This document shows positions 21-25,388 of a DNA stretch of 64,000 nucleotides, piece after piece (position 1 is the first letter of the stretch; every line of letters starts with the position of its first letter). The DNA comes from an uncultured Acidobacteriaceae bacterium (lineage in GTDB: Bacteria; Acidobacteriota; Terriglobia; Terriglobales; Acidobacteriaceae). A model generated the notes under the pieces. It saw only the letters and a program-made list of their open reading frames with translations, searched no databases and had not been told where the DNA came from. The stretch is taken from assembly GCA_963720135.1 (NCBI GenBank), contig CAVREJ010000028.1, positions 38,680 through 102,679 on the forward strand, given 5' to 3'. The position numbers and the translations under genes were made by a program.

Positions 21-1247
<1,227 letters not shown>

Positions 1248-1264
1248 AGGTACGTCTATGAGGT

Positions 1265-1286
1265 GCTGCGGGAGTGCCCCCGCAGC
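1265..1286. terminator. GC-rich hairpin between convergent genes (possible bidirectional terminator)
   Basis: GCTGCGGG (1265-1272) and CCCGCAGC (1279-1286) form an 8-bp stem with a 6-nt loop in the 43-bp gap between two convergent stop codons. No clear U-tract. Confidence 0.35.
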
Positions 1287-1290
1287 CTGC

Positions 1291-2334: not shown

Positions 2335-2347
2335 TGGACCTCGTTGC

Positions 2348-3505: not shown

Positions 3506-3776
3506 TCCGTCTGCTCTCCAACAAGGGGATTAGGTGGTTTCACGGGAACGGAGGAAAGCCAATCTCGTGGGCGCCAACTCTTGCCAGCGGGGAAGAATAG
3601 GAACCAGATCGACGCCGATTCCGAGCCGCTAAAATATCTCTTAAATTGTGGAGTGTAACATGTGAGGAAATCCCCCGTCGAACCGCGGCACCGCATCGCA
3701 CAGCCGGGTAGGACGAGCGGCGCGGCAGATTTGGGTGGTGCCGAAGACGGCGCCTTTTATATAGGAATGCGATTGC

Positions 3777-4794: not shown

Positions 4795-5561
4795 GACGCA
4801 CTAGAGGCAGTAGGAGTCGGGGTTTCTAAGAAAATCGGCGGGCCGGGCGAAGGAGAGGCGACTACGGTTCGCACCAGATCACCCGTAATTTGCCACCAAC
4901 CATAAAAGGTCTTGCCACCCTCATAAACGACGTGCAGCGGGCGCCAGCTGTTGAGGCTATCGGACTGCAAGGCGAAGGAAGGGTCTTCTGCGTGGTCTTC
5001 GTCTACCGGCTGCGCCGGACGGCCGGGATGAACTATCACGCTGCGGGTATCGATCCGAAGCCCAGTGCGCAGCGCTTTCATGGTGCTTTCCTTTGCACTC
5101 CAGAGCAAGGCCAAGAGCCGCGGTCGGTCGGGCGCGCACGTCCGCTCAATCAAGGCTCGCTCTCCATTCGTGAAGTAGTCGGCAATAAATGCGTCGCTAC
5201 GCGTCTCGATCAGTTCCAAGTCGCAACCCAGTTCCGCATTCGACGGCGCGATGGCACATGAAGCAACACCGGCGCGGTGGCTGAGCGAAATGGTAATCGG
5301 CACTGGTTTGTTCGCCACAAAAACTTCGGGCGCGCCAGACGCCGCCGGCCGTACCTCGATATCCGCAAGGGCACGCGGATGGCTGGGGAGCTTCCAGTAA
5401 ATCGCCAGCGCGCGTTTCCCCGTCCATCGGCCCAACCGCCAGTCGGCGTGGCGCTTGGCGAAACGCATACCGTCCAGTCGAGTCGCTTCGCTGGCGCTTA
5501 ACCAATCACTCTCCGACGGCACTTCGGCTTCGGTCTGTTCCAGCCAATACACGTCCATCAT
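4791..5561 (-). CDS. 4'-phosphopantetheinyl transferase (Sfp/PfaE type)
   Basis: 256 aa with a two-domain PPTase layout, GCDLE acidic site and LWSAKESTMKA (W-x-x-KE-x-x-x-K) motif. Its ATG overlaps the stop of the carboxylase gene (ATGA at 5558-5561). Confidence 0.8.
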   Translation of the reverse strand: MMDVYWLEQTEAEVPSESDWLSASEATRLDGMRFAKRHADWRLGRWTGKRALAIYWKLPSHPRALADIEVRPAASGAPEVFVANKPVPITISLSHRAGVASCAIAPSNAELGCDLELIETRSDAFIADYFTNGERALIERTCAPDRPRLLALLWSAKESTMKALRTGLRIDTRSVIVHPGRPAQPVDEDHAEDPSFALQSDSLNSWRPLHVVYEGGKTFYGWWQITGDLVRTVVASPSPGPPIFLETPTPTASSAS

Positions 5562-8500: not shown

Positions 8501-11209
8501 GGCTTGCGCATAGATCTGTTTACGTGATTGCTCAAACAGCGCCTGCTCGAAGCACCGATAGCGCAGCTCGCGGGCGAGATGGCAGATGGAGGGAAAGGGT
8601 CCGCGGGTGATGGCAATCATTCGGTCCAGCAATAAACGGAACGAGTCGTCGGCGTGTGTCGCAAGGCTGTCGACACGTGCCAGACGCCGTTCCAGCAAAC
8701 CCAGAATAGGCGCCACTTGCCGCTCGACCCGTTGATGCGACTTGTAGATCCAGAGCAAGCTCTCTTCCAGTTCGGGCGAGCGGTCCAGAGTCTTCACGCC
8801 ATAATGAGCGAGGGTGCGCCGGAGCGCGTCCATAAACGCAGGCGGAAGTCCTTCGCCGTGCGTTTCCAGCATGCGCGAGTAGGAAAACAGGTACGCCTCG
8901 GTGCTGGGCTCTTCCCCACCGGCGGGACCATGCACGCTCGGCTTTCGGCGAAACAGAGAACATACATCCACAAAAATGTTGAGGATCTCATCTTCGCGGC
9001 GGACTACTTCGTCGCTGTCCGCCGGGGCTTCATGGAACTGACTCCATTGCGCGAACAGCCGCGTTGTCTGGGCCGGGTCCGCGTCGAAACCCAGCATGAG
9101 GTGCCGCAGTTCTTCCAAATCTTGCCGCCAGCGAGGTTGATTGCAAGGTTCGTTCGTGGTCGGCGTTTCACCAAACACCAGCCGCTGCATTGTTGCCGAT
9201 GTTTGGTCATCTGCGATGGCTTCGATTTGCACCAGTGGATCTCCGGCCGCTACCTGCACGTGCGGTATTGTCATTACTTGCCGCACTTTTCCGGAAAACG
9301 GCGCCATGACCGCCATCTCCATTTTCATTGCTTCCAACACAGCCAGGGTATCCCCGACGGAAACGGAGTCGCCCACCTTCACAGCGATGGAAACCACAAC
9401 TGACGGCCCCGGCGCGTGCACCACTCCACCGTCATCTCGATTGATCGAGTGCGACACGCCGTCCACTTCGATCCGGTAATTTACTCCTTGAACTACAGAA
9501 ACGAGGTGGAAGCGCCGTCCGAAGGCGGTGAGCCAATATTCAAACTTGCCCAGAGGGTGGATGAGAGCTTCGATGCATGATCCATCCACTTCTACGCGGT
9601 ACTGATGGGGGCCGAGGCAACAAATCCTGAGAGAGTAGCCTTGTCCTCGATAGCGCAGTTCCACGGTTCGGCCCAGCTCATGCCGAACGTGTGGGCGTCC
9701 GCGAACGGCTGAAGCATAGAACTGCGACTGTTCCACCGCCAACTCTGTGGAGTATGCCTCGATCGCGGCCTGCACCAGCGCTACCTGCGCGTGACGCCTG
9801 GAACAGTGCTCGCCGTTCGCCGCCAGACGGTCCAGCCATCCGATATCAACTTCGGCTCGCTGTACGTCGGGGCGGTTCACCAAGTCCAGCAGGAACGCCT
9901 TGTTACTGGCTCCGCCTTTGATGACGACAACGCTCTCGCGTAGCACCCGCTGCAGCCTGGAAAGAGCTTCCTTCCGGTTCTGCCCGTAGGTGATGATCTT
10001 GGCGATCATGGAGTCGAACTCCGGTGGGATAGCATCACCTACGGCCACACCGGTATCAATGCGCACTCCGGGGCCGGTGGCAAGCCTGAACCGTTCAATC
10101 ACACCCGGAGCGGGAGCGAATCCGTTTTCTGGATCTTCGGCGTTCAGCCGCACCTCAATCGCGTGACCGGTGGTCCGGGGAGGATCGCCTTCCAGACGTC
10201 CGCCGCGTGCGACGTGAATCTGAAGCTTGACGAGGTCGAATCCGGTGGTGCGTTCGGTCACTGGATGTTCGACTTGCAACCGGGTATTCATCTCCATGAA
10301 GGAGAAGCGGTGGCTTTCCGGTTGATACAGGAATTCAACGGTACCGGCGTTGTAATATCCTGCCGCCTGGCTCAAGCGCACAGCGGCCTCGCGGAGCGCC
10401 TGATCTTGCAGGATAGTAAGCGCGGGCGAGGGCGCTTCTTCCAGGACTTTCTGATGGTGGCGTTGAATGGTACAGTCACGCACTCCGACTGCCCACGTGG
10501 TCCCATACTGATCGGCGATGACCTGCACCTCAACGTGGCGCGCCGCCAGAAGCAATTGCTCCATGAAAACGGTGGCATTGCCGAAGGCCTTGAACGCTTC
10601 CGCGCGGGCGCCTTCAAAGGACGTCAGGAGCTGGGCCGCGGAGTTCACGCGACGAATGCCGTGACCGCCCCCTCCAGCGGTGGCCTTAATCAGGAGCGGA
10701 TAGCCAAGGCGTTCGGCATGACGCTTCGCATCAGCGAACGTTTCCACCGGGCCGCCGCTCCAGGGCGCCACCGGTATCTGGGCCTGCTCGGCCAGCAGTT
10801 TCGAGGCAATCTTGTCGCCCAGACGTCGCATCACATCGCCATCCGGGCCGATAAACACGATATCGAGCTTGCGGCAAAGGTCTGCGAACTCAGGGTGCTC
10901 CGCGACAAAACCCCATCCCACCCAGACCGCCTCCGCGCGTGCTGCCGTCAGCGTCCGTTCGAGCAAGTCATAATCGACGTAGCTGCTCTTGGAGTGACCC
11001 GTGGCCGGATCGTTGAGGAAAGCATCACCAAGAAACACGGCTTCGTCTGCCTCGCAAACGAACATAGCGTGGCGATCGGGCTCAGTGTAGAGCGCAATGG
11101 TACACAACGATGTGCCGTTCTCTTGATTGAACTCGCGCGCCGCATGTATGAAGCGCATCGCGGCTTCGCCACGATTGACAATGGCGACCCGTTGAAATTC
11201 GTGCTGCAT
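5558..11209 (-). CDS. Single-chain multidomain acetyl/acyl-CoA carboxylase (BC - BCCP - central region - CT)
   Basis: 1,883-aa ORF.
- Biotin carboxylase: RVAIVNRGEAA, AGGGGHGIR, MEMNTRLQVEHPVTE.
- Biotinyl domain: EAMKME, Lys codon AAA at 9323-9325.
- Long central region.
- C-terminal carboxyltransferase resembling multidomain eukaryote-type ACC.
GAGGAG SD lies upstream of ATG 11209. Confidence 0.9.
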   Translation of the reverse strand: MQHEFQRVAIVNRGEAAMRFIHAAREFNQENGTSLCTIALYTEPDRHAMFVCEADEAVFLGDAFLNDPATGHSKSSYVDYDLLERTLTAARAEAVWVGWGFVAEHPEFADLCRKLDIVFIGPDGDVMRRLGDKIASKLLAEQAQIPVAPWSGGPVETFADAKRHAERLGYPLLIKATAGGGGHGIRRVNSAAQLLTSFEGARAEAFKAFGNATVFMEQLLLAARHVEVQVIADQYGTTWAVGVRDCTIQRHHQKVLEEAPSPALTILQDQALREAAVRLSQAAGYYNAGTVEFLYQPESHRFSFMEMNTRLQVEHPVTERTTGFDLVKLQIHVARGGRLEGDPPRTTGHAIEVRLNAEDPENGFAPAPGVIERFRLATGPGVRIDTGVAVGDAIPPEFDSMIAKIITYGQNRKEALSRLQRVLRESVVVIKGGASNKAFLLDLVNRPDVQRAEVDIGWLDRLAANGEHCSRRHAQVALVQAAIEAYSTELAVEQSQFYASAVRGRPHVRHELGRTVELRYRGQGYSLRICCLGPHQYRVEVDGSCIEALIHPLGKFEYWLTAFGRRFHLVSVVQGVNYRIEVDGVSHSINRDDGGVVHAPGPSVVVSIAVKVGDSVSVGDTLAVLEAMKMEMAVMAPFSGKVRQVMTIPHVQVAAGDPLVQIEAIADDQTSATMQRLVFGETPTTNEPCNQPRWRQDLEELRHLMLGFDADPAQTTRLFAQWSQFHEAPADSDEVVRREDEILNIFVDVCSLFRRKPSVHGPAGGEEPSTEAYLFSYSRMLETHGEGLPPAFMDALRRTLAHYGVKTLDRSPELEESLLWIYKSHQRVERQVAPILGLLERRLARVDSLATHADDSFRLLLDRMIAITRGPFPSICHLARELRYRCFEQALFEQSRKQIYAQAGDHLAYLAANPEAADRHERVSALIECPQPLASLFSRRFAAADPELRRLMLEVVTSRYYRGQSLMNFRPLPANGNSCVSAEYVKDGRRVHVLAAHADYDRLAEAIQAMCPSIADVPAEHDIVIDLYLWNSGSLAEQEVTQQEVCSRLNQACFPRPVERIVVAVSGPGRGEGMAGMQHFTYQFSTNVFAEEKLFRGVHPMMAERLHLWRLKNFSVERLPSVEDVYLLHARAKENPKDERLFAVAEVRDLTPVRDETGRIVQLPHLERMFAEAVAGIRLFQSRRAAHERLYWNRIFLYVWPVFDLKPDELNDIAHKLASSTDGLGLEQVVVRACIPNPQTGELRDMVMRISAPGDAGLLMTFRPLSTLQLMKPLTEYNQKVVRMRRRGLIYPYEIIKMLTPARENTRAEFPPGDFLEHDLDSEGRLIPVDRAPGQNKSNIIVGVIRNFTAKYPEGMTRVLLLGDPSGDLGALAEPECRRILAALDLAAEMGVPLEWFPISAGAKISMESGVENMDWIARVLRRLVEFTQAGGEVNLVINGINVGAQPYWNAEATMLMHTRGILIMTPKAAMVLTGKRALDYSGSVSAEDNEGIGGYDRVMGINGQAQYWARDIDQACHILLRHYEHTYIAPGERFPRRAATNDPIDRDVRAYPHGTGSDNGFARVGEIFSDDTNAGRKKSFDIRSVMRAVVDQDLCPLERWPGMRGAETAVVWDAHLGGYPVCLIGIESKQVPRLGFVPADGPDQWSAGTLFPLSSKKLARAINAASNNRPVVILANLSGFDGSPESMRKLQLEYGAQIGRAVVNFKGPMIFCVISRYHGGAYVVFSRALNEQLEVVALEGTYASVIGGAPAAAVVFSSEVESRARKDERVEALTQAMAKADGKEKARLRAEWNELFKVVHSEKLGEMAEEFDRVHSVHRALRVGALNRILPPASLRPYLIDAVERGMRKTEESVLREVQAGNPLRKEAPVEEILMISGVGQA

Positions 11210-11248
11210 AAACTCTCCTCAACCGACCGGCCAGATCAATCGCATTGA

Positions 11249-14200
11249 CTACGCCATGACGGCGTGCAGTGTTTTGAAGGCTTCGGCATTGAGGCCGTCG
11301 GGCATCGCCGCCGTACGGTAGCCGAAGACCCGCAGGTAGCAATTCCCTTTTGCGTCCACGACCTCGGCATCGAAGCTTGCTTGGTCCGGATTGGGAGTGA
11401 CGACCGCATACAACTGGCTCTCCGCCAAGGCCGGCGCACGCAACAACGAAACTTCGTGGACCGCCAGTGGCAGACCAAACCGGTTTTGGACAGTCATTTC
11501 CCAAAGGCCGGCGGTCTGGAAGCAGAGCTCGATCAGCCGCGGCGTCATCAGCGTCGGCTGGTCGGATGGGCGGTGATTGCCCGGGAGGCCTTTGGCCATT
11601 ACTCCAACCATCTGCTTTCCATCCCACCAAGCCCGTTGCAGAACTTGGTAAGCCGGTCCGTGGAAATAGACGCGATAAATATCAGCAGCTTCGATGAACG
11701 AGTCAGCCGACATCTGCGGCGTCTTCCCGGTTACAGCTGTCGGTGTCTGTTTCGACAGCCGCACGCGGGCGGTGAAGTGAACGGTTTCTTGCGGCTCCGG
11801 GTGGTTGGGTAAGGTGCGCCGCCCGATGAGTCGGCAATCTGCGACCAAGCTGTCACCTTGCGGGCGGTACGCGGCTTGGACCGTAATCGTGCGCGGCTCA
11901 TCGCGGTAGAACTTGAACGGCGAGAGGAAATTTACCTCTGCCACCGCTTCGACATGCCAACCCGGAAGCACGCATCGGGCGGCTTCCGCGAAGCCTTCGA
12001 TTCCCATGACGCCCGGCAGTACCGGTGTGCCATCGATGCGATGATCGTACAAGAATGGTTGGATCTTCGGATCGAGCGTCGTCTCCATCGTCAAGCCGCT
12101 GTAAATTCCCATTCCCGTGATCTTGCCGACCATGGGCCCCTGTGCCGTTGTTTGCTTTCCGGCAACGGCTGCAAATGCGTCAGTGTCGAGCCCGCCCGTG
12201 GAATCCCACTCGGTCAGCAGAACGCCAAGATGCTGACCGACCACAACTTCACCGCGTGAACCTCCCAAGGTTAGTTCGCGGCGAATCCAAGGAATTCCCG
12301 CTTCAGGTCGGAGCATGTCGATGCCCGCCAGCTCCATCATCTTCGGGATGGAACCGCGTGTTGCCATTCCGATACCGGCCCACGCCGACCAGTCCAGGAC
12401 AATGCCACGCGTCAGTGGCCGCGTCGTGCGGAAGCTCGACGTGATCTTGCACAACAGATCGTTGGCTGAGCTGTAGTCCGTCTGCCCGCCATTGCCAAAC
12501 CGTCCTGCAACTGAGCTAAATGCTACCGTCGCTCCCAGCGGCATGTCGCCGATGGCCCGCAGCAGATTGAACCAGCCGTCACTCTTTACGTCGAAGACAA
12601 GATCGAATTCGCGTGGGTCCTTGTCTGGCAGGAAGTGGCTGCGCTCGACACCCGCAGCATGCAGCAGCACGTCAATGCGACCGCTGCGCTGGCGCACCTG
12701 GTTGACGATACTGGCCACCGCAGCCGTATCCGTAAGGTTGACGCTGAAGTAGTGCGCCGTGCCTCCGGCAGCTCGCACCGCGTCGATGGCGCTCTTGGCA
12801 GCGTGCGCCCGCTCTAGCGCTGCTAACTCCTTCTCGACCAGCGCCGGTGTAGCACGCTCACCGCGTGCCTGGATGCGTGCGAACAGATCCCGCTTCAGGC
12901 CATCTTTATCGGCCACAAAGCGCGCGACATCGGGATTATTCGGATCGGGTTCAGGCACCAGATCAAGCAAGTAGAACGTGCCACCAGAAGCTGCCGCCAA
13001 GTCAGCGGTGATGGCCGAGACGATACTTCCGGCCGCGCCAGTGATGAGAAACACAGTGTCGGTGTTCAAGGTCAGACCGGGCTGTCCATCGGCTACGGGC
13101 TGTTCTTGCAGGCCAACTGTCCAGCGCTGACCGTCCTTGTAGCCAACTTCGACTACTCCAGGGTCGCGCAGAGTTTCCTCAACAAGCAGTTCGGCAACCT
13201 CTGACGTCTTGGACTCGGCCTCGAAATCGACCGCCTTGACAAGGGCGTCGAGTCGTTCCCGCTTATAAGTTTTGGTAAAGCCGGTTACCGCGCCACCGAG
13301 CGGCGCAAGCGCTCCTGCCTCGTCGTATCCATGCTGCCCGCCCAATCTCGTGGCCGATACCAGGAATGTGCCCGGTTGTGCGACTTGGTCGAACAGAACA
13401 CGCATGGTGGTGTAAAGCAATTTCACTCTTATCTGCAGCGCCTCATGCCAAGCAGGCAAATCCAGTGTGCTGATGGATCCCTCGTAGTCCAGTGCTGGAA
13501 GCCAATAGACTCCTTGCACCGGCCCGGAGGCCAGCCAGCCTTGGAGGCGTTTGGCCAGCGTATCTGGATCGCGCGCGTCCTCGATCGCGAACACTTCGAC
13601 TCCCTTTGCCTGTAGCTGTTGGATCAATGCGCTCGCCACCCCGCCTTTGTCGGGCATGATTATCACGCGGCAACCCGCGCCAATTTTCACGCCGGTGGGT
13701 TTGCACAGGTTAAGCGGCGGCCGCAAGTTGGGCACTGGTACGCGACGTGGAATACTATCTGCCGCATCGAAGTTCGCGACTGGCAGCCGTGCAACCTTGG
13801 CCGTTGCCACAGCCGGTGTCGCAGAGACGGTTGCGGCGGATAGCCTTGTCCGCTGCCCAGCGTGTGCGAATTGAATAACGTGGGCCAGGGTCGGGAATTC
13901 GCGCAGCTTGAGATTCTCATCACGCGGGATGTTATATGCGGCGCGAATAGCAGCGAACATCTCCGCCTGCTTGACGGTGTCGATGCCGAGGTCCGCTTCG
14001 AGATCAAGGTCCAGATCGAGCATGTCCTTGGGATAGCCGGTCTTCTCCGCTACGATGTCGAGCACCTTCTCCTTAATGGAGGCATGCGTAACCGTCGCGG
14101 GCACGACAGCAGCCGGCTCGGGAACGGTCGGTTCAGCGGTCGTTGACGGTGACGATGCGGTAGGCGACAAATCGGGGCGCTTGTCATATACGAATTGGAT

Positions 14201-15238
14201 CACGTGCGCCAGGGTGGGGTAATCGCGTAGTTTGCGGTTCTCGTCGCGAGGAATGTTGTAGATTTCACGAATGGCGGCGAACATCTCCGCTTGCTTCACC
14301 GTATCAACGCCGAGGTCCGCTTCCAGATCGAGATCGACATCCAACATGTCTTTGGGATAGCCGGTCTTTTCCACCATCAATTCGAGAATGCGTTCCTTCA
14401 CCGACTCGCCAGCACCGTTGTTAGGAGTCGCCACGGCTGCTGGTGTTGTCAGTTGGGGCGAAACCGGCGTAGTCGGGGCCGCTGGCTCGCTAATCGTCGG
14501 AGACAATGAAGGCGTACCGGCCAGGTCGGGCCGCTTGTCATACACGAATTGAATCACGTGCGCCAGTGTGGGGTAATCCCGCAGCTTGCGGTTTTCGTCG
14601 CGTGGGATGTTATAGATCTCACGGATGGCGGCGAACATCTCCGCCTGCTTGACCGTGTCGACGCCAAGGTCCGCTTCCAGATCAAGGTCGACGTCCAGCA
14701 TGTCTTTGGGATAGCCAGTCTTTTCCACCATCAAAGCCAGGATGCGCTGCTTCACGGAATCGCCAGCGCCATCGGCCGGCGATGTTACCGGCGGCACGGG
14801 TGCGGTCGGCTGGACCGCGACGGGCGTCGGCGCAGGTGCAGGCGCCTCGGTCGTTTTCGGCGAGGGAGGAGTACCGCCAGCCAAGTCCGGCCGCTTTTCG
14901 TACACGAACCGAATCACATGCGCCAATGTCGGGTAGTCACGCAGCTTGCGGTTCTCGTCGCGCGGAATGTTGTAGATCTCGCGAATCGCCGCGAACATTT
15001 CTGCCTGCTTGACCGTGTCCACACCGAGATCCGCTTCCAGATCAAGATCGACATCCAACATGTCTTGCGGGTAACCGGTCTTCTCAACCATTAAGGAAAG
15101 GATGCGTTCCTTCACCGATTCGCCAGCGCCGTTCCTAGGAAGCACAGCGGGGGTTGCCGCAGGAACCTTCGTTACTTCCTTCACCGTCGCCCGCGTGGCC
15201 GATGCCGTCACGGCCGGTATCTGTTCTTTGACCGGCAT
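11249..15238 (-). CDS. PfaA-like megasynthase, C-terminal part: 4x tandem carrier (ACP) domains - ketoreductase - hot-dog dehydratase
   Basis: 1,329 aa.
- Four repeats of ...LDLEADLG[VI]DTVKQAEMF...
- KR Rossmann FLITGAAGSIVSA and DYSSAND.
- DH motif HRIDGTPVLP (HxxxGxxxxP).
ATG 15238 has no obvious SD and lies inside the 3' end of the upstream ORF. This ORF is probably the continuation of 15135-20139. Confidence 0.9.
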   Translation of the reverse strand: MPVKEQIPAVTASATRATVKEVTKVPAATPAVLPRNGAGESVKERILSLMVEKTGYPQDMLDVDLDLEADLGVDTVKQAEMFAAIREIYNIPRDENRKLRDYPTLAHVIRFVYEKRPDLAGGTPPSPKTTEAPAPAPTPVAVQPTAPVPPVTSPADGAGDSVKQRILALMVEKTGYPKDMLDVDLDLEADLGVDTVKQAEMFAAIREIYNIPRDENRKLRDYPTLAHVIQFVYDKRPDLAGTPSLSPTISEPAAPTTPVSPQLTTPAAVATPNNGAGESVKERILELMVEKTGYPKDMLDVDLDLEADLGVDTVKQAEMFAAIREIYNIPRDENRKLRDYPTLAHVIQFVYDKRPDLSPTASSPSTTAEPTVPEPAAVVPATVTHASIKEKVLDIVAEKTGYPKDMLDLDLDLEADLGIDTVKQAEMFAAIRAAYNIPRDENLKLREFPTLAHVIQFAHAGQRTRLSAATVSATPAVATAKVARLPVANFDAADSIPRRVPVPNLRPPLNLCKPTGVKIGAGCRVIIMPDKGGVASALIQQLQAKGVEVFAIEDARDPDTLAKRLQGWLASGPVQGVYWLPALDYEGSISTLDLPAWHEALQIRVKLLYTTMRVLFDQVAQPGTFLVSATRLGGQHGYDEAGALAPLGGAVTGFTKTYKRERLDALVKAVDFEAESKTSEVAELLVEETLRDPGVVEVGYKDGQRWTVGLQEQPVADGQPGLTLNTDTVFLITGAAGSIVSAITADLAAASGGTFYLLDLVPEPDPNNPDVARFVADKDGLKRDLFARIQARGERATPALVEKELAALERAHAAKSAIDAVRAAGGTAHYFSVNLTDTAAVASIVNQVRQRSGRIDVLLHAAGVERSHFLPDKDPREFDLVFDVKSDGWFNLLRAIGDMPLGATVAFSSVAGRFGNGGQTDYSSANDLLCKITSSFRTTRPLTRGIVLDWSAWAGIGMATRGSIPKMMELAGIDMLRPEAGIPWIRRELTLGGSRGEVVVGQHLGVLLTEWDSTGGLDTDAFAAVAGKQTTAQGPMVGKITGMGIYSGLTMETTLDPKIQPFLYDHRIDGTPVLPGVMGIEGFAEAARCVLPGWHVEAVAEVNFLSPFKFYRDEPRTITVQAAYRPQGDSLVADCRLIGRRTLPNHPEPQETVHFTARVRLSKQTPTAVTGKTPQMSADSFIEAADIYRVYFHGPAYQVLQRAWWDGKQMVGVMAKGLPGNHRPSDQPTLMTPRLIELCFQTAGLWEMTVQNRFGLPLAVHEVSLLRAPALAESQLYAVVTPNPDQASFDAEVVDAKGNCYLRVFGYRTAAMPDGLNAEAFKTLHAVMA
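13865..15127 (-). repeat. Four tandem coding repeats (about 330-360 nt each) encoding carrier-protein domains
   Basis: Amino-acid repeats start at residues ~38, ~158, ~276 and ~386 of the 1,329-aa ORF. Copies 1-3 are nearly identical in protein sequence but differ at synonymous sites. A/P/T-rich linkers separate them. Confidence 0.9.
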
Positions 15239-18200
15239 CCATGCGACCGGATTTCGCCATGGGCTTTGGCGGTGCGGACGCTACTGGCGGAGCCACTTGC
15301 GCCTGCACTTCGGGCTTAGTGGCTGGCTTGGGCGCAGGTGCCGTTACTGGCACGGAATCCTTGGCGGCTCCGGCGATCCGCGCTGCCAATCCTTGATCCG
15401 GCACTCGTAACGTGCGGTGGACCACTTCCAGATTCGGGACCAGACGGCCTGCCATCCGGGTTAGCCAAGCATTCCAGGCATCCTTGTCGGCAATACGGTA
15501 GGAGTAGCCAAGCGCCTTGGGACTGCGACGAATGCCGTCCTTGGTCGGCAGCCACTTCAACAAAATGATGCTGATCTGTGAACCGAAACCGGCGCCCAAA
15601 TGCATTGCATACTGGACGGGATAGGCGCCGCCCTTCGACAGGTTCAGGACGCCCAGCTCGGGATCGACTTCCTTGAAGTTGGCAACGGGCGGCAGCAATC
15701 CCGTCTCCAGCGCCTTCACGGCGAGGACATCTTCAATACCAGTCCCCATGGCGTGACCAGTCATCCCTTTGGTGTTGGCGATCACGACTTGATCCGCGCT
15801 GTCGCCGAAGATGCGACGCAGTGCATGGATCTCCGCCGAAGCGCTGCCACCACGAGCAGGGGTGTAGGTCTCGTGCGAAACGAAAACCATTTGCGGAGCT
15901 ATTTCGTTGCGGGTAACCCCGGTGCGCGTTTCGACTTGGCTTACCAGGCCCTCCATCACCTGGCCGATGTGCTGGACATCGAGGCGAGTGCCGTGAAACG
16001 CGCTATTGGCCGTCACCGTGCCCAGCACTTCACATATGGGCTGGATTCCGCGTTCACGAGCGGCATCCAAGCTCTCAATCACGAGCGCGGCGGCGCCCAT
16101 GCCCATAATCATGCCGTGCCGGCGGCGATCGAAGGGAACGGCGGCATCTTCCACCTTTTCGTCGGTGGCTGAGGTTCCGCTGGCCAAAAATCCGGCGCCC
16201 ATCCATCCCATCAGGTGGTCCGAGGTGACATCGTCGGCCGAGATGACGATCACGCGGCGGCAGCGCCCCGCGCGGATCCAGTCCTGCGCCAACGAAACTC
16301 CTTGAGCAGTGGTCGCGCATGCGGAATTGATTTGCGTGTTGGGACCACGCGCGCCGATGAGCTCGGCGAACTGCGAGTGCCCCATCGACAAAACTCTCAG
16401 CAGGAAGCGCCGGTCGAAGACGTAGTTTTCTTTCTCGATTGTGCTGCGCAACTCCTCGATGCGCCGGTCTAATTCTTGCCCCAGGTCCGAATGGCCATTC
16501 CCTGCCGCGCGGAGGCGCAAACCCTCCAGCAAAGCCAACTGTGCGCGACGCTCATGGTCCTCGTGATAGCTCCCTATAATGTCGGCGAAGGAATCATAAC
16601 CGGGGAAGGCCGAGCCGAAAATCACGCCGGTGTCGTCACGCATACCGTCCGGCAAACCCCAACGGTCAGGTAACTGCGTGCCTTTGGTCGTGGTCTTATA
16701 ACGCATGACCAGGGGGATGCCGGCATCACGTAGCGCGTCGATTCCCGCGCCGATAGCCAGGCGAGTAACCTGGTCGAAGGCGGCGAGGTGCTCGGTGGGA
16801 ACGCCGAATTCACTTTCCAAATCGAAAGCGCCCCCGCGACCTGCTAGCTTGATAACATCCGCCACATCCGTGATGGACTCGAAAGTGGGCTCTCCCTTTT
16901 CGCTCTTAACCAAGCGTCTGATGCGCTTGTCCACCATCTCCTGGCGGAAGCGCGCAGGGATCGAGCTGATGAATTGGTCGCCACGCAAGATGCGTTCGAT
17001 ATTGCCATCGTCGAAGATGCGCTCGGTACCTGGCAGACCCAGCGATGCTCCCGTGATGCTGACTTGGAGATTCGCGCTGGCAGAAGTGTCGCCGTGATGC
17101 CAGCCGGCGCGTTCCAGGGTCTCGGTCAACAGACGGCCGAGCTCGTCATATCCATGACCGTTCGAACGAGTTGCCGGTGTCGGAAAAGCAGCCGTGACGG
17201 AAGCCACCACCGGCATTGGTCTGGTCTCGTTCGCTGCCACAGAAGGCGCAGGTCTCACTGGGATATCGACCGCCACATCGGGTCTCCCGTGGCCCAATCC
17301 CGCCCCATAAAGTGCGCACAGCGCCTGGTTGAAGGCCGGAATATCCCCGAATTTCGGGTGATTCGTGAAAAGCGAAACCACGTCGCCGCGTCCGCCGAGC
17401 ACTTCTTCTGCAAATCCCTGCAACGCCTTCTTCGGCCCCACTTCAACGAAGATTCGCGCGCCCGCATCGTAGAGCGTGTTCAAGCCTTTCACGAACTGTA
17501 CCGGCGAAGCGACCTGCTGCGCGAGAAGCTCCAGCATCTGCGGGACAACATCAGGTCCGTTGGGATAAAACTCGCCATTTACGTTGGCGACCACTGGCAC
17601 AAGAGGTGGCCGGACGTTCAGGTGCGATAGCATTTCGCGTAGAGGCTCGCTGGCCGGAGCCACAATCGAGGTGTGGAAGGCGTGGCTCACCGGCAAGGGG
17701 GCCACGTCGTACCCGGCTTGCAGGAAGATCTGTATGGCTTGCTCGACTGCCTGGCTGGCCCCGCCGATGACCGACTGCTGACCGCTGTTTACGTTGGCGA
17801 TCACAACGTAGCCGTCAATGGTCTTCAGGATTCGCTCGACTTCAGCAAGCGGCGCAAAGACCGCCGCCATCTTTCCGGTATCTTTCACGGCCACTTTCGT
17901 CATGCCCCGACCGCGGGCGCTGACTGCCGACAATGCGTCCTCGAAGGTAAGCGAGCCTGACGCGACTAAGGCGCCGTATTCGCCCAAGCTGTGTCCCATG
18001 GTCATGTCAGGCCGGATGCCATAAGCGTCCAACAGCCGGGTTAGTGCGAGGTCGATCGTCAGCACGGTGGGCTGAGTGATCTCGGTCTGGCGCAGATCTT
18101 CTTCCGCTTTCGCCACGGCGTCCGGGTTAGTTTTGTCCACGAAGACAAACTCGCTCAATGGCCTGCCCAGCAGCGGAGTCATGATGCGGTCCGCTTCGGC

Positions 18201-20139
18201 AAACGTCTTGGCTACGATTGGTTCGGCAGCGCAGAGAGGCTCAAGCATGTTGACGTACTGCGAGCCTTGCCCGGTGTACAGGAACGCCACTTTGCCGGCA
18301 GTGCCGCTTCCACGGAAGATACCTTGTGGACGCAGGGCCTTCCAGATGGGAGGTTGATTGGCTTTCAGCGCCTTCAGGGCTTTGATCGATTTGTCGGCCA
18401 AATCGACGGCATCGGCGTAGTCAATCGCCAGGCGTTCGGGAGCTCTCAGGTCCGATTCCGCTGGAGCCGATGGTGCTGGTGCACGACCTGCCGCTGCATC
18501 CTGTTGAACTGCCTGCAGACGCTCCGCTAGAGCCACATCTGATTCAGCGCCGATCACGAGTGCGCCTCTCAATGGTGGTTTGCTGGAGACAGCTGATGGT
18601 GACAGAGACGCAACAGTCGGCACAGGAACAACAGCCGCCACGCTGACCGTCTGCTCTGCCACAACTGGCGATGGTGCGCTGACTGCAACCGAATGCCTGC
18701 CATTTCCGTTGAGCTTGCCGGGTATGTACTCTTCGAGGACGGCGTGGAAGTTGGTGCCGCCAAACCCGAAGGCGCTCAGCCCGACTCGCCGCGTGACATC
18801 CGCGGGGACCGTCCACGGTCGCAACTCGGTGTTGACATATAGAGGGGAGCGAGCAAAGTCAATGGCCGGGTTGGGATGTTTGAAATTCAGGCTGGGCGGC
18901 AACACCTTATCGCGCAGCGCCAAGGTTGCTTTCAGCAATCCAGCCGCGCCCGCGGCTCCTTTCAGATGCCCAATGTTCGATTTAACAGAGCCCAGTGCCA
19001 CCGACCCGGCGGGGAGATTCAAATTGCCGAACACATCGGCCATGCTTTGCAATTCAATCGCGTCGCCCACGCTGGTCGACGTGCCATGGCCTTCCATCAA
19101 CGTACCGGCGGTTGGAGATAACCCGGCATTTTGCCAGCCGCGCTCGATAGCCAGCTTTTGACCAATCGGGTTGGGCGCCGTAATTCCCTTTCCCTTGCCG
19201 TCGCTCGCACCGCCAATCCCGCGCAGCAGCGGCGTAGATTTTGTCGCCATCGTGCTCGGCATCGGCCAAACGCTTGAGCAAAAAGATCGCCGCGCCTTCG
19301 CCCATTACGAAACCATCGGCTCCCTCCGCGTAGGGACGGCTATCGATCGCCGAGAGCGCCCCGATCTTGCAAAACTTAACGAAGGTGGGGGCTCCCATGT
19401 TGCGATCGATCCCGCCGCAGACCGCCACGTCAAAGTCATTCGCCACTAGCCCTTCGACCGCCGAGCTGATCGCCGCCATTGCCGATGCGCACGCCGCATC
19501 GCACACGTAATTGGGCCCGTGAAAGTTGTAGATATTCGCAATGCGGCCGGCAATGCAGTTGGCCAATTCGCCGGGCATGCTGTCTTCTGTAATTTCAGGG
19601 AGGAGCTTAGCCATGCGGTCGTGCAATTCGCGCGTGATGTCTCGACGTGCTCCCGCCGGCAACGCGGCGAAGGTGGCGCTATCCGCCAACTCACGAGCGT
19701 ATTCCGGAAAGTGCACGCGCAATGAGGTGAGGTAATGTCTTTCGCCAGCCATGGCATTGCCCAGGATTACTGCAGTGCGATCAAGATTCAGTGGCCGCTT
19801 AGGATAGCCATAGTCTTCCAACGCTTCGCGGGTAGACGCGATGGCCCATTTTTGCGCAATGTCCATGGCATCGATTACGCGGGGCGGTATGGGCAGATGC
19901 CACTTCATTGGCTCCCACACATATTCCCGCACCCAGCCACCGATCTTCGAGTAGGTCTTGTCGGGCGCGCTGTGGTCGGAATCGTAATAAAGCGCCGGGT
20001 CCCAACGATCGGATGGAACCTCGCTGATGCTGTAACGGCTGTTCTTCACGTTTTCCCAGAAAGCCGGTACGTTCACGGCATCGGGTAGAACTGCCCCTGC
20101 CCCCACAATCGCAATCGCACGATGAGCGGTGTTTTCCAT
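15135..20139 (-). pseudogene. PfaA-like megasynthase, N-terminal part: KS - acyltransferase - second KS (one internal apparent frameshift)
   Basis: Frame 1 (20139 to ~19230): KS1 with DAACAS, Cys codon at 19489-19491.
Frame 2 (~19229 to 15135):
- KS1 C-half (EGHGTST, KSNIGH).
- AT with GHSLGE, Ser codon at 17988-17990.
- KS2 with NSACATT, Cys codon at 16317-16319, plus SHETYTP and TGHAMG.
- A/P/K-rich linker at the 3' end. Confidence 0.85.
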
Positions 20140-20555: not shown

Positions 20556-22241
20556 TTAAGCCAGGACGGCCTGTTCCACTTCCTTCTTCACCCGGCTATA
20601 GATCACGTCGGCTACGTAATCCATGTCTGAAACCACGCCGGCTTGTGCGCGGTGGATGGCTGACAATCCCAAGTCCGCTTCAAACCCAGCCATCTCCGCG
20701 TCGCTGACACCACCGGCTCCGGTCACCCAACGCAAGCCCTCTTCGCTTACCTTGAGGGCTGCCTCGCGCGCGAAGATCCGACTGATGGCCGCCAGCGCCG
20801 TCGGGTCGAAGCGGTCGTTGGCCTTCTCGTGCAGCCTGCCTTCGGCAGCCAGCGCAGCCCGGCGGGCCAGCGTGGCGGCGCATTCGGCATACGCAATCCA
20901 CTCACCAACGCGCAGCAGAATGTGTTGAAAGCGGGTGAGCCGATGAATGCGCGCCTTCTCCATCACCTCAGCCAAGGCGTGCAGCGCCAGGGCTGCTACA
21001 TCGGCGCCGACGTTGGGATGTGCGGCATGCAGCGCCTCGACCTCGCGCGCGCGATCATGATAGTGCTGTCCGCGCGTCTTCAGGTGGAGCTGCCAGCGGT
21101 CGCGGCTGATCGTCATCTCCATGATCTCCGAAGTACCTTCGTAGATGCGGGTGATGCGCACGTCGCGGCTCACCTTCTCCACCATGTACTCGTGGGTATA
21201 GCCGTAGCCGCCCAGCGCCTGAATGCTGGCGTCGGCGGCGGCATCGCCGGCTTCGGTGGACATGTACTTGGCGATGGCGCCTTCGGTGTTGAGGCTTCCC
21301 TCGTTGCCGGCGTCGATGCGTTGCGCCGTCTCTTCTATAAAGGCGCGTCCGGCTTCCAGCTTCACCACGTTGGGCACGATGAGCTTGTGGGTATAGCCTT
21401 GCTTCTCCGACAGCGGCGTGCCGCCCTGGATTCGCTTGGTGGAATAGGGGATGGCGCGGTCCAGCGCGGACCAACCGGCGCCCAGCCCGAAGGCCGCGAC
21501 CATCACCCGCGTGTAACCGAAGACCAGCTGGGCCTGGATGAGTCCCTGGCCTTCTACGCCACCGACCAGCCGGTCGGCATCGACGTAAACGTCGTTGAGG
21601 GCCAGCGCTGCCGTGTTGCTCAGACGAATGCCGTGCTTGTCCTCAGGCTTATCGTGAGCAAAACCCTTGGTACCCGCGTCCACGATGAACCAGCTTGGCC
21701 CAGCGGGGGTATTGGCCAGGATGGTGCAATAGTCGGCAATTCCGCCGTTGCTGATCCACTGCTTGCTGCCGTTGATCTTGTACCCGACGATCTTGCCGTC
21801 TTTTTCGACGCGATCGGCGGTCGTCTTCAGCGCGCCCAGGTCGCTGCCCGCTTCCGGTTCGGTCGCGCCGTAGGCGAACAGAACGCCTTCGTCGGCGATC
21901 TTGCCCAGCCACTTCTTTTTCTGCTCTTCAGTGGCGCCGAACGTTATGGGATCGCTGCCCAGGAATGTGGCGAACAGCGAGGTGGCGACGCCCAGGTCGA
22001 TGCGCGCCATCTGCTCGCAGATGAGATAGACGTCCATGGTGCTGCCGCCCATGCCGCCGTACTCTTCCGGAATGAACAACAGCTGAATGCCCAATTTGTC
22101 TGGGTCAGACATTTGCCGAACAATCTCCACGGGGCATTCATCGCGTTCATCCAGTGCGATCAGCTCTTCATCAGGCAGGCGCTTCTTCGCGAAGTCCCGG
22201 AGCGATTTCAAACTTAGCTGCAATGTCTTCTTGGTGATCAT
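20556..22241 (-). CDS. Acyl-CoA dehydrogenase with C-terminal helical extension
   Basis: ACAD blocks: [25 protein letters not shown]. About 180 extra C-terminal residues. I moved the start to ATG 22241 (MITKKTL), which follows an AGAGAGG SD and removes the overlap with etfA. Confidence 0.85.
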
Positions 22242-22263
22242 TGTCGGTGCCTCTCTTTGTCTC

Positions 22264-23247
22264 TTAGACCGAAACCGGTTTCGTTTCACGGACCTTGCTG
22301 GTCAACTCCGGCAAGAACTCCAGGATGTCGTCCACAATTCCGATGTCTGCAACCTGAAAGATCGGAGCCTTCGGATTCTTGTTGATCGCGACGATGAAGG
22401 GATTGCCTTTCAGGCCGGCCAGATGTTGGAAGGATCCGCTGATGCCACATGCCATGTAAACCTTGGGCTTGACCGTCTTCCCGGACGAGCCCACCTGGCG
22501 TGATTTCGGCAGCCACTTGGCATCGACCACCGGCCGCGAGCAGCTCACCGCCGCGCCCAAGGTCTCGGCCAACTCCTCAGCGATAGCGATGTTGTCTTTT
22601 TCCTGGATGCCACGGCCGACCGAAACGAGGACAGCGTGCTTGGTGATGTCCACATCGCCTGCCTCGGCAACGATCGTCTCGAGATAACGTCGGCCAGATG
22701 TCAGAGCGCCAACGTCCGCCGACTTGTCAACGACGACACCGTTGATGGGAGCGCCTTCCTGCGGTTTGAATGCGCCCGGACGCAGATTAAGGACTGCTCC
22801 GGCTGATGCATCGCACCGGACATGAGCGCTCACCTGTCCGCCGAACTCTTGCCGGACGAGCTTGAGCGTAGCACCGTCAACCCCGTCAATGCCGATTACA
22901 TCGGGCACATATGCCGCATTCATCTTGATGGCCAGACCCGGTGACAGGTCGATTCCAAAGTGTGAGTGAGAGACCAGCACAATGCCACCGTGTGGCAGGA
23001 CTTTCAGCAAAGCTTTTCTCACCAGCTCAGCATTGGGGTAAGCAAGTGCCTGGTTCGCGATCTTCCACACTTCTGCGTATGAGCCACCCAGGGTTTCGCA
23101 AACGGCGTCAAGCTCCGCGCCCCAACCGGTGACTACCGCGACCGGCGAGGCGGCCGCGTCGATCTTTTTCGCAGCGGCTAGGAGTTCGGCCGCTGAATCG
23201 TCGGCAATGCCGCCCTTATGTGCGATGTAGGCGAAGATGCGTGCCAT
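22264..23247 (-). CDS. etfA: Electron transfer flavoprotein alpha subunit
   Basis: 327 aa. The C-terminal FAD-binding block [27 protein letters not shown]...[13 protein letters not shown] is typical of EtfA. Its ATG overlaps the etfB stop (TAATG at 23245-23249). Confidence 0.9.
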
Positions 23248-24035
23248 TAGTTCAAGCCTCCTTTGGCCTTCATTAACTCAATCAGTTTGGCGATGACTTC
23301 TTCCCGGTCGCCTTTGAGCATCTCGGCGCCCTTGCCGAGCGCTGCCACGAAGTAGTCCACCCGTTTGACCTTCGCTCCGGCATTCCCGACTGCACTTGCA
23401 TCTACACCGAGGTCGGAGGCGCTGAAGGTCGGAACATCTACCGCCGCGACCTGCCGAATGCCTCGCATCCCGACGTAACGCGGCTCATTAATGCCGGTCT
23501 GAATTGAGAGCACGCAGGGGAGATCGATCTCGTTCATCTCCTTGTTCCCGCCTTCGATCTCGCGGCTCACCTTCAGCTTGCCGCCGTCAACTGCAATGGA
23601 ATTCACCAGAGAAGCGAAGGGATAGTCGAGCAGGGCCGCCAGCATTCCACCTACTTGGGCGCCGCCGTCCTCGGCCTGGACTCCGGTCAGGATCAGGTCG
23701 TAATGGCCCTTCTGCACGAACGACTTCAAAACCGTCGCGATGCCCTCGCCGTCGGATCCCTCGAAGGCCTTGTCGGAGATCAACACGCCGCGATTGGCGC
23801 CCATGGCCATCTCTCGACGCAGTACTTCCTCATCCTCATCGCTGCCGACCGTAACCACCGTGACCGTGCCACCGGCCTTGGCGGTGATCTGCAGGGCCTC
23901 TTCGACGGCGTAGTTGTCGGGTTCGTTGATCGAATAGACCAGATCGTCACGTTCGATATCGTTCCCGGCGGTATTGAGTTGAATTTCGTTTTCCGACGTG
24001 TCAGGTACTCGTCGTACGCAAACTAGAATTTCCAC
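23247..24035 (-). CDS. etfB: Electron transfer flavoprotein beta subunit
   Basis: 262 aa. Starts MEILVCVRRVPD (GTG start), followed by the INEPDNYAVEEAL block typical of EtfB. Confidence 0.9.
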   Translation of the reverse strand: MEILVCVRRVPDTSENEIQLNTAGNDIERDDLVYSINEPDNYAVEEALQITAKAGGTVTVVTVGSDEDEEVLRREMAMGANRGVLISDKAFEGSDGEGIATVLKSFVQKGHYDLILTGVQAEDGGAQVGGMLAALLDYPFASLVNSIAVDGGKLKVSREIEGGNKEMNEIDLPCVLSIQTGINEPRYVGMRGIRQVAAVDVPTFSASDLGVDASAVGNAGAKVKRVDYFVAALGKGAEMLKGDREEVIAKLIELMKAKGGLN

Positions 24036-24141
24036 GTTAACTCTCCACGAATTGATGTGCTCCGTTTCACGATTGGTGTCGCCCAGCTAATACGGGTAGT
24101 GCGGCGCTTTAGCTGGATAGTCATCTGTTTTCGGCAGCTTT

Positions 24142-24166
24142 GAAGGGGCACGGCTTCAGCCGTGCC
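24142..24166. repeat. 25-nt hairpin-containing repeat, left copy
   Basis: GAAGGGGCACGGCTTCAGCCGTGCC. It contains an 8-bp self-complementary stem (GGCACGGC/GCCGTGCC) and is the exact reverse complement of 25308-25332. Confidence 0.8.
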
Positions 24167-24249
24167 ATAAACCCGCCGTCATTTTGGTGGCTTTAGCCTC
24201 TGAGGGGCCTCGGTGTTGAAACCAAGTGCGACCTCCCTCAGCGGCTAAA

Positions 24250-25278
24250 TGTGAAGTTTCAATAGGTTGTTGTCCATTCGGCCAAGAACTGGGAAGCTGA
24301 AGTTGCGAAGCAACAGCTACCGAGGGGACCGAATGGACTATCACCATCATGCTCGACTTACGATTCATCGTCGAGAGGAACTTGCCGAAACCGTGATCCA
24401 GGGCCGACTGAGCTTGAAGGAGGCCGCGGCCGAGTTCAAGCTCAGTCGGCAGAGTGCCGCCAAGTGGGTGCATCGCTTCCGTACTGAAACACAAGCCGGG
24501 TTGCGCGACCGCAGCTCGCGACCGCACCGCTCTCCCCGTGCTACTTCCCCAGAACTGATGGATCGCGTGCAGCGGCTGCGACGTGAGCGTTGGACAGGGG
24601 TTCGCATCGCCCAGTCCACCGGCCTGAGCCGGGCCACGGTGAGCCGCATCCTGACCCGGTTCAAGCTGAATAAGATCAGAATGCTGGAACCGGCCGTGCC
24701 TATCGTGCGCTACGAACTTCCCGCTCCTGGCGATCTGCTGCACATCGACATCAAGAAGCTGGCCCGCATTCACAAGCCCGGCCATCGCCTCACTGGCAAT
24801 CCCCAGGATGAAACTCGTGGCGCCGGCTGGGAGTTTCTTTATGTCGCCATCGATGACCACTCCCGCATCGCCTTCACCGCCCTGCTGCCCGATGAAAAAG
24901 CGACTTCCTCCAGCAGCTTCCTCCGCCAAGCCGCGGCCTACTTCGCCCACCTCGGCATCCAGGTCCGTCGCGTCATGACGGACAACGGCCCTTGCTTCTG
25001 CTCCACCCGGTTCGCACAAGCCTGCGACGATCTCCAACTCAGACACACCCGAACCCGCATCTACACCCCACGCACCAATGGCAAGGCCGAGCGCTTCATC
25101 CAAACTGCCATCCGTGAGTGGGCCTACGCCCGTCTCTACCAGAACTCTGCCGAACGCTTTCGTCACCTGGCTCCTTGGATTCACCAATACAACTGGCATC
25201 GACCCCACACCGCCCTCAACCAAAAACCACCCATCAGCCGATCCGGTCTCGATGTCAACAACCTCTTGACACACCACA
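24250..25278 (+). mobile_element. IS481-family insertion sequence (about 1.03 kb)
   Basis: Imperfect terminal inverted repeats: TGTGAAGTTTCAATAGGTTGTTG (24250-24272) versus CAACAACCTCTTGACACACCACA (25256-25278), 19/23 complementary, with TGT...ACA ends. Flanked by the direct repeat GCTAAA (24244-24249 and 25279-25284). Contains a single DDE transposase ORF. Confidence 0.85.
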
Positions 25279-25283
25279 GCTAA
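24333..25283 (+). CDS. IS481-family DDE transposase
   Basis: Starts MDYHHHARLT. N-terminal HTH region, DDE/rve core (LLHIDIKKL..., FLYVAIDDHSR, TDNGPCF, TPRTNGKAERF), and the HRPHTAL tail typical of IS481 transposases. The stop codon TAA is supplied by the flanking duplication. Confidence 0.9.
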   Translation: MDYHHHARLTIHRREELAETVIQGRLSLKEAAAEFKLSRQSAAKWVHRFRTETQAGLRDRSSRPHRSPRATSPELMDRVQRLRRERWTGVRIAQSTGLSRATVSRILTRFKLNKIRMLEPAVPIVRYELPAPGDLLHIDIKKLARIHKPGHRLTGNPQDETRGAGWEFLYVAIDDHSRIAFTALLPDEKATSSSSFLRQAAAYFAHLGIQVRRVMTDNGPCFCSTRFAQACDDLQLRHTRTRIYTPRTNGKAERFIQTAIREWAYARLYQNSAERFRHLAPWIHQYNWHRPHTALNQKPPISRSGLDVNNLLTHHS

Positions 25284-25307
25284 AGCCTAACTCTTCACAC
25301 TCATAAC

Positions 25308-25332
25308 GGCACGGCTGAAGCCGTGCCCCTTC
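25308..25332. repeat. 25-nt hairpin-containing repeat, right copy (inverted)
   Basis: GGCACGGCTGAAGCCGTGCCCCTTC is the exact reverse complement of 24142-24166. The two copies bracket the IS481 insertion site. Confidence 0.8.
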
Positions 25333-25388
25333 AAGAGCGGTTGAAGCAATTTTTCTTCCTGCGTCTGCCTTCGACCTGAAGGCCAGCA

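Follow-up and report, generated by a model that had tools for sequence, protein, structure and literature searches.

Organization of the synthase locus

The DNA analyzed here is a stretch of 64,000 nucleotides from an uncultured Acidobacteriaceae bacterium (GenBank assembly GCA_963720135.1, contig CAVREJ010000028.1, positions 38,680 to 102,679; hereafter, the window), and our subject is the second ketosynthase domain (KS2) of a Pfa-like megasynthase encoded on its minus strand. The synthase was spread over three overlapping open reading frames (ORFs): 19054..20139 encoded the N-terminal part of the first ketosynthase (KS1, active-site motif DAACAS); 15135..19262 encoded the C-terminal part of KS1, an acyltransferase (AT) and KS2; and 11249..15238 encoded four acyl carrier proteins (ACPs), a ketoreductase (KR) and a polyketide synthase (PKS)-type dehydratase (DH). 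KS2, a thiolase-fold domain of about 505 amino acids (aa 733-1237 of ORF 15135..19262), was flanked by the AT and the four ACPs. A Pfam scan detected no enoyl reductase (ER) domain in the synthases of the window and of loci L012 and L090, and no thioesterase domain in those of the window and L012, leaving chain release unexplained. The features of the locus are listed in Table 1.

Table 1. Features of the synthase locus, in the order of transcription.
Feature	Position in window	Strand	Basis
EtfA, EtfB, ORF without family match, CCG plus 4Fe-4S oxidoreductase	22264..27529	-	Domain search
Long acyl-CoA dehydrogenase (ACAD), 577 aa, directly upstream of the synthase	20556..22289	-	Domain search; same position in L084-L090
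KS1, N-terminal part (PfaA-type ketosynthase; Cys codon 19489-19491)	19230..20139	-	Pfam ketoacyl-synt, E 3.8e-55
Frame break 1, one extra base (~19229) inside KS1	19225..19232	-	Comparison with L012, L014, L005, L004
KS1, C-terminal part (EGHGTST, KSNIGH) and KS C-terminal extension	18702..19228	-	Pfam, translation
Malonyl-type acyltransferase (GHSLGE at 17979-17996, HAFH)	17418..18284	-	Pfam Acyl_transf_1, NCBIfam FabD
KS2 (second ketosynthase, FabF-like, full catalytic set)	15552..17066	-	Pfam, NCBIfam, PDB, AlphaFold2, Foldseek
KS2 family-specific beta-hairpin insertion 1 (RRLVKSEKGEPTFES)	16875..16919	-	AlphaFold model, alignment, translation
KS2 family-specific beta-hairpin insertion 2 (LVMRYKTTTKGTQLPDRWG)	16656..16712	-	AlphaFold model, alignment, translation
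KS2 family-specific helical-hairpin insertion, two long helices directly before the Cys helix	16431..16598	-	AlphaFold model, alignment
KS2 active-site Cys codon (FabF C163), NSACATT	16317..16319	-	Translation
KS2 first catalytic His codon (FabF H303), SHETYTP; family motif HETYTP	15873..15875	-	Translation
KS2 Lys codon (FabF K335), NTKGMTGHAM	15768..15770	-	Translation
KS2 second catalytic His codon (FabF H340), NTKGMTGHAM (KGMTGH)	15753..15755	-	Translation
KS2 gating Phe codon (FabF F400)	15585..15587	-	Translation
Frame break 2, ~13 extra nt in the Ala/Pro-rich KS2-ACP1 linker	15236..15251	-	Comparison with orthologues
Four-ACP array	13859..15121	-	Pfam PP-binding, 4 stretches
KR, then PKS-type DH	11300..12820	-	Pfam KR, PKS_DH_N, PS-DH
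Fused multidomain acetyl-CoA carboxylase (ACC), BC-BCCP-central-CT	5558..11209	-	Pfam; directly downstream of the synthase also in L084-L090
Sfp/HetI-type phosphopantetheinyl transferase (PPTase)	4791..5561	-	Domain search

Shulse and Allen described in 2011 a "Type R" secondary lipid synthase consisting of one pfaA homologue with the order KS-MAT-CLF-ACP(3-6)-KR (CLF, chain-length factor), followed by a PPTase gene (PLoS One 6:e20146; PMC3098273). Its members were found in Koribacter versatilis, Solibacter usitatus, Elusimicrobium minutum and Roseiflexus, an ACC gene lay between the pfaA and pfaE homologues in Koribacter, and the product was listed as uncharacterised (PMC3098273). In the window, KS1, AT, KS2, four ACPs, KR and DH followed one another in this order, though split by two frame breaks (the order occupies a single ORF in L012 and L090), and the ACC and PPTase genes lay directly downstream. 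By its domain and gene order, the locus is a Type R Pfa-like iterative megasynthase, KS1-AT-KS2-ACP4-KR-DH, with a layout that is neither new nor rare. The original prediction, which allowed PfaA-type proteins one KS and treated the KS-AT-KS order as unfamiliar, was wrong on this point, the type having been catalogued in 2011 (PMC3098273). The membership model for PfaA itself (TIGR02813) scored 393 and 408 bits on the window ORFs, below its cut-off of 1010.

A common architecture had been named in the original prediction as a point that would count against it, and the architecture proved to be common. A scan of species genomes returned 295 stretches encoding a relative; the closest loci (77-97% identity) were all in metagenome-assembled genomes of Acidobacteriaceae, Candidatus Korobacteraceae or Terriglobales. 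When the KS2-specific N-terminal half served as the query, 309 clusters (50% identity) were found at E<=1e-30, and in full-length cluster proteins the KS2 match nearly always began at about residue 1000-1250, i.e. behind KS1-AT.

KS2 retains the residues of a decarboxylating ketosynthase

The N- and C-terminal halves of the Pfam ketoacyl-synt family both matched KS2, and FabF was the top match in NCBIfam and PDB sequence searches. The Pfam halves and the translation agreed with the original prediction on the position of a second KS between the AT and the ACP array, and the translation agreed with it on the intact Cys-His-His set; the Lys and the gating Phe were present as well.

Conservation was assessed in an alignment of 85 close KS2 homologues with Escherichia coli FabF and FabB. 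Over the aligned stretch, the homologues shared 58-83% identity with the KS2 of the window, and their source names covered at least six phyla (Acidobacteria, Actinobacteria, Myxococcales of the Myxococcota, Chloroflexales and Anaerolineae of the Chloroflexi, Gemmatimonadetes and Gammaproteobacteria). The equivalents of FabF C163, H303, H340, K335, F400, T305, T307 and E314 were invariant in all 85. A more distant set comprised 57 full-length KS2 domains, representatives of 50%-identity clusters with 45-66% identity; the Lys and the second His were kept in all 57, the first His and the gating Phe in 56 each, and the Cys in 55. The dN/dS of KS2 was 0.09, and its identity across phyla (64-67%) was on par with that of KS1, AT and KR.

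An AlphaFold2 model of KS2, built from the 85-sequence alignment, had a pLDDT of 91.9 and a pTM of 0.93. When it was compared with the PDB by Foldseek, the top 39 matches were all FabF/KAS II chains (TM 0.84-0.87 on target); rank 40 was the actinorhodin KS-alpha chain, and no chain-length-factor chain appeared among the top 50. Taken together, these results show KS2 to be a conserved domain under selection, with the FabF fold and every catalytic residue expected of a decarboxylating ketosynthase.

The model and the alignment located three family-specific insertions in KS2 (Table 1). In the third, the model placed helices at residues 165-196 and 202-220, and about 45 aa had no counterpart in FabF and FabB. 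The "long helical insertion" running from SEKGEP to EKENY in the original prediction thus contains a helical hairpin, as claimed, but it is not a single element: two beta-hairpins and one helical insertion are separated by core KS elements.

KS2 resembles FabF more than chain-length factors by profile and fold

The reference set for trees and profiles included E. coli FabF and FabB, FabF of Streptomyces and Bosea, NodE, three type II PKS KS-alpha/CLF pairs, the canonical Bacteroidota polyunsaturated fatty acid (PUFA) synthase of Persicobacter (PfaA1, PfaA2, PfaBC and PfaD), a Nostoc hgl-like cluster and a Beijerinckia ArsA-like PKS. In neighbor-joining trees, KS1, PfaA-KS, HglE-KS, PfaC-KS, PfaC-CLF and the KS-like domain of HglC formed a clade with 100% bootstrap support; KS2 fell outside it, among FabF, FabB and the type II PKS ketosynthases. 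The identity between KS1 and KS2 was only about 20%.

Profile comparisons ranked FabF first throughout. Against single sequences, a hidden Markov model (HMM) of the KS2 family scored 95 bits with FabF, 84 with KS-alpha, 57 with FabB, 41 with type II CLF, 17 with PfaA-KS, 5-14 with its own KS1 and 3 with PfaC-CLF. In the opposite direction, the mean scores of group HMMs over 11 KS2 sequences were 136 bits for FabF, 89 for KS-alpha, 54 for type I KS, 51 for type II CLF and 5 for PfaC-CLF, and the corresponding hhalign scores were 248, 163, 128, 126 and 40. On these profiles we conclude that KS2 is derived, in all probability, from a FabF-type (type II) ketosynthase that was placed in a PfaA-type scaffold. 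KS2 is not a typical FabF, scoring 147 bits on the FabF model TIGR03150 (cut-off 493.75) with only its C-terminal 280 residues aligned; of the FabF features examined, it has the thiolase fold, Cys-His-His, Lys335 and gating Phe400, and lacks Asp311.

The alternative that fared best is that KS2 is a CLF-like partner, which would form a heterodimer with KS1 and set chain length, decarboxylate malonyl-ACP for priming, or both, without condensing. The second domain is named CLF in the Type R description (PMC3098273), and neighbor-joining paired KS2 with the type II PKS CLF at 88-100% bootstrap. The residue at the FabF D311 position is Ala in all 85 close and 51 of 57 distant KS2 homologues, with Ser in five of the distant ones. 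Furthermore, the synthase has no obvious loading domain, so that priming must fall to one of the KS domains, by decarboxylation. Against this stand the residues themselves: the type II PKS CLF references have Q, D and R at the Cys, first His and second His positions, and the PfaC-type CLF reference has E and A at the first two, but in KS2 the Cys, both His and the Lys are all in place. Since a chain-length factor is defined by loss of the Cys, KS2 as translated is not one, and judged by its profile scores it is unrelated to the PfaC-type CLF. Nor is the low identity of KS1 and KS2, with an AT between them, what is seen in adjacent KS-CLF pairs.

KS-alpha is the accepted sister of the type II chain-length factors. 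In neighbor-joining with KS2 taken out, the CLFs did not fall beside KS-alpha, and with the CLFs taken out KS2 had no resolved placement. Because these taxon-removal controls failed and the profile and fold comparisons disagreed with it, the pairing of KS2 with the CLFs is unreliable and looks like long-branch attraction. Clustering with CLFs, which the original prediction had named as evidence that would count against it, was thus seen in neighbor-joining only, with the type II PKS kind, and was contradicted by profile and fold; a sister relationship of KS2 and type II CLF was rejected as unreliable despite its high bootstrap. We consider a CLF role for KS2 improbable.

A separate idea, that canonical PfaA retains a degenerate KS2 as the spacer between its AT and ACPs, was also rejected, as the spacer is low-complexity and gave no match to the KS2-family HMM.

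Frame breaks and other alternatives

Three reading frames of the window were needed to align the full-length orthologue at L012. The claim of two competent condensing domains in one polypeptide therefore held in part: KS2 is real, under selection and complete in Cys-His-His-Lys, but the synthase of the window is split into three ORFs. In orthologues it is one ORF of about 2550-3200 aa, most relatives, including nearly all short-read assemblies, having about 2850-3200 aa; L012 has KS-AT-KS-ACP-KR-DH in a single 2959-aa protein, and the finished genome of Nonomuraea gerenzanensis (L090) has one ORF of 2555 aa.

Two disruptions relative to intact orthologues, the second of about 13 nt and thus atypical for a homopolymer error, could mean that the gene is a decaying pseudogene in the source organism, with both breaks real and KS2 no part of a working enzyme. 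Against this, the domains contain no stop codons or other damage, and dN/dS between the window and L012 was 0.05-0.10 in every segment. Neither break occurs in the relatives, including the closest one, L004, which has a KS2 protein 97% identical to that of the window. Among long-read "MFD ... bin" relatives, about 20 of 48 were broken, each elsewhere than the window, whereas short-read relatives were almost all intact. We regard a pseudogene as quite unlikely; errors of assembly are the most probable source of both frame breaks.

The catalytic triad of OleA and FabH-type enzymes is Cys-His-Asn. KS2 carries Cys-His-His-Lys instead, FabH models scored at most 21 bits on it, and no ole genes (oleBCD) were found when searched for among the window neighbors at 30-27529. 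Because of this difference in catalytic residues, the head-to-head condensation suggested in the original prediction is disfavored for KS2. A noncanonical terminal step in general, whether head-to-head (OleA-like), another non-decarboxylative Claisen condensation or chain release, is very hard to credit: the helical hairpin and two beta-hairpins could form an unusual substrate pocket, the synthase is without a thioesterase domain, and a nearby short-chain dehydrogenase/reductase (SDR) has a very weak OleD-like match (53 bits vs a 580-bit cut-off), but Cys-His-His-Lys with the gating Phe is typical of an elongating, malonyl-ACP-decarboxylating ketosynthase, the fold and sequence are nearest to FabF, not to FabH or OleA, and the operon holds no OleBCD genes.

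A conserved operon surrounds the synthase

The ACC gene encodes a single 1883-aa protein that fuses biotin carboxylase, biotin carboxyl carrier protein (BCCP), a eukaryote-type ACC central region and carboxyltransferase. In Saccharopolyspora erythraea, fatty acid synthesis requires a multidomain ACC of the same type (PMC6491548). The order ACAD-synthase-ACC-PPTase was kept in distant high-GC relatives, including Kibdelosporangium and the finished Nonomuraea, in whose operon the reading frames abut or overlap. Separate ACC subunits took the place of the fused ACC in L103, L105 and L106. In three proteins the PPTase was fused at the C-terminus (P0188, 3910 aa; P0193, 3187 aa; P0217, 3592 aa), and P0188 and P0217 carried ER-KS-AT-KS2-ACP-KR-DH-PPTase in a single polypeptide.

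An ER of the PfaD/NMO type was fused to the N-terminus of the synthase in P0233, P0217, P0234, P0188 and P0205. The P0233 locus (L103), the one fused-ER locus examined, contained a three-gene ACC, the synthase, a PPTase gene and gpsA, and no ACAD. Because an ACAD lies beside synthases without an ER and a fused ER occurs elsewhere in the family, these arrangements suggest that the ACAD may stand in as a trans enoyl reductase where no ER is fused, and that full reduction cycles could be part of the family chemistry. A search for ACAD-KS fusion proteins, as Rosetta-stone evidence, found none; only NMO-type ER fusions were found. EtfB, EtfA and the CCG/4Fe-4S oxidoreductase also adjoin in L084, L087 and L088, and by their position EtfAB and the Fe-S oxidoreductase are the likely electron path for the ACAD. 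A 373-aa ORF between EtfB and the CCG-domain gene (24156-25277, minus strand) had no Pfam or NCBIfam match.

Several observations concern the regions beyond the operon. The window from 30 to 4794, beyond the PPTase gene, is rich in lipid head-group genes: a UDP-sulfoquinovose-synthase-like gene (30-1247), an HpnI-like family-21 glycosyltransferase (2348-3505; 283 bits vs a cut-off of 310) and an SDR/epimerase whose N-terminus looks short (3883-4794). In Nostocoides (L083), a partial KS2 gene adjoins a family-21 glycosyltransferase. The gene gpsA, for an NAD(P)H glycerol-3-phosphate dehydrogenase, lies 3' of the PPTase gene in L103 (18249-19268) and L089 (21934-21956 onward), a position that hints at a link to glycerolipid synthesis.

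In L106 (ENA ERZ25072729 contig_4), the synthase at 7001-16564 is a 3187-aa KS-AT-KS2-ACP-KR-DH-PPTase protein flanked by ACC subunit genes. Genes for prefoldin and an archaeal-type D-aminoacyl-tRNA deacylase (PRK03995) lie on the same 371-kb contig, and by these markers the family may reach Archaea. A different kind of double KS was seen in L101 (793-3186), on an [Eubacterium] eligens plasmid, where a 797-aa protein of two tandem ketosynthase-like domains stands beside an ACP gene.

A possible division of labor between KS1 and KS2

The division of work between condensing enzymes has precedents in FabH/FabB/FabF and in PfaA-KS/PfaC-KS. We favor, at a probability of roughly 0.6, the reading that KS2 is the second decarboxylative elongating ketosynthase of the Type R synthase, FabF-derived and sharing the cycles with KS1 by chain length. 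In such a scheme, an acyl chain would be taken onto the KS2 Cys, and the two His and the Lys of KS2 would decarboxylate malonyl-ACP, the malonyl unit having been loaded on the tandem ACPs by the cis AT. KS2 would then join the acyl chain and the decarboxylated unit, which would be ordinary chain elongation. Cycles would be split by chain length, one KS serving priming and short chains and the other long chains; by analogy with the precedents, a separation of priming or short-chain work from elongation is plausible, as the original prediction had proposed.

The KR and DH would act in cis, and enoyl reduction would be performed in trans by the adjacent ACAD with EtfAB and the Fe-S oxidoreductase, or in other family members by the fused PfaD-type ER. 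The ACAD-synthase-ACC-PPTase operon would then be a self-contained, fatty-acid-synthase-like unit whose product would be a long acyl chain, mostly reduced, destined for a lipid. The broader proposal, of a widespread self-contained type I fatty-acid-synthase-like system with its own ACC, PPTase and reductase, in which KS1 and KS2 are both active, one initiating and the other elongating, and the ACAD is a non-homologous replacement of the ER, is offered only tentatively.

The following points weigh against parts of the favored reading. In the 85-homologue alignment, KS2 has family-fixed changes relative to FabF (N396 to Leu, G402 to Ser, Glu after the first His in HETYTP, and D311 to Ala), which may bear on catalysis, and the neighbor-joining pairing with the type II CLF remains on record, as do the two frame breaks in the window gene. 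The sole hint on how chain lengths are allocated between KS1 and KS2 is a Phe conserved in the KS2 family at the FabF I108 position; this Phe and the neighboring helical hairpin may shape the acyl pocket. ACADs normally oxidise, which makes a reducing role conjectural. Two distant members, L105 and L106, have neither an ACAD nor a fused ER directly beside the synthase; in L106, an ACOX/ACAD-like gene lies about 4 kb away, with nothing nearer of that kind. A literature search that included the Elusimicrobium PKS, hglE-KS in Acidobacteria and Roseiflexus PfaA found no functional study; on this search the architecture is not already functionally assigned, a point that the original prediction had named as counting against it. 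Besides Shulse and Allen (2011), the search found no paper with a KS-AT-KS, KS-AT-CLF or KS-MAT-KS string.

The second Type R domain appears to have been mislabeled as a CLF and is better described as a conserved, FabF-derived, active-looking ketosynthase. Automated pipelines annotate KS-AT-KS proteins generically as beta-ketoacyl synthase. The present analysis adds to the 2011 description that the synthase belongs to a conserved operon together with its own ACC, PPTase and ACAD or ER. The family occurs very widely among soil bacteria, including Acidobacteria, Actinobacteria, Chloroflexi and Myxococcota, and is highly conserved, at 60-70% identity between phyla; its conserved operon makes it a good target for experimental characterization. 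To learn what the synthase makes, and why it uses two condensing enzymes, would close a real gap in our picture of how bacteria build lipids.

Comparison with known systems

The window synthase resembles the Type R synthases, as set out in the published description, in its domain order, in the PPTase gene downstream, in the ACC gene that separates the two, an arrangement described for Koribacter, and in its host lineage (Korobacteraceae/Acidobacteriaceae). It differs in the second domain, labeled CLF in that paper and here FabF-like with an intact Cys-His-His-Lys set. The paper makes no mention of the C-terminal DH, of the conserved upstream ACAD/ETF genes or of relatives in which a PfaD-type ER is joined to the synthase.

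KS1, AT, the tandem ACPs, KR and PKS-type DH of the window are PfaA-like. The canonical PUFA synthase (PfaA/PfaC with PfaB and PfaD) likewise has two condensing activities, and some relatives of the window synthase share a PfaD-type ER with it. In the window, however, the second KS lies on the same protein, between the AT and the ACPs, with a profile score of only 3-9 bits to PfaC-KS/PfaC-CLF, and no PfaB, PfaC, PfaD or FabA-type DH was found in the flanking genes (window 30-27529).

The type II PKS KS-alpha/CLF pairs fall, like KS2, in the broad FabF/type II ketosynthase superclade. The CLF is without the Cys and His that KS2 has, and in profile similarity to KS2 it ranks below FabF and KS-alpha. 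Unlike these pairs, KS2 has no adjacent partner from a recent duplication.

FabF/KAS II differs from KS2 in being free-standing rather than embedded in a megasynthase, and the two are about 24% identical; KS2 has about 95 extra residues in three insertions, Ala for D311, HETYTP for HGTSTP and GFGS for GFGG. They share the thiolase fold (TM 0.84-0.87), Cys-His-His, Lys335, Phe400, Thr305/307 and Glu314.

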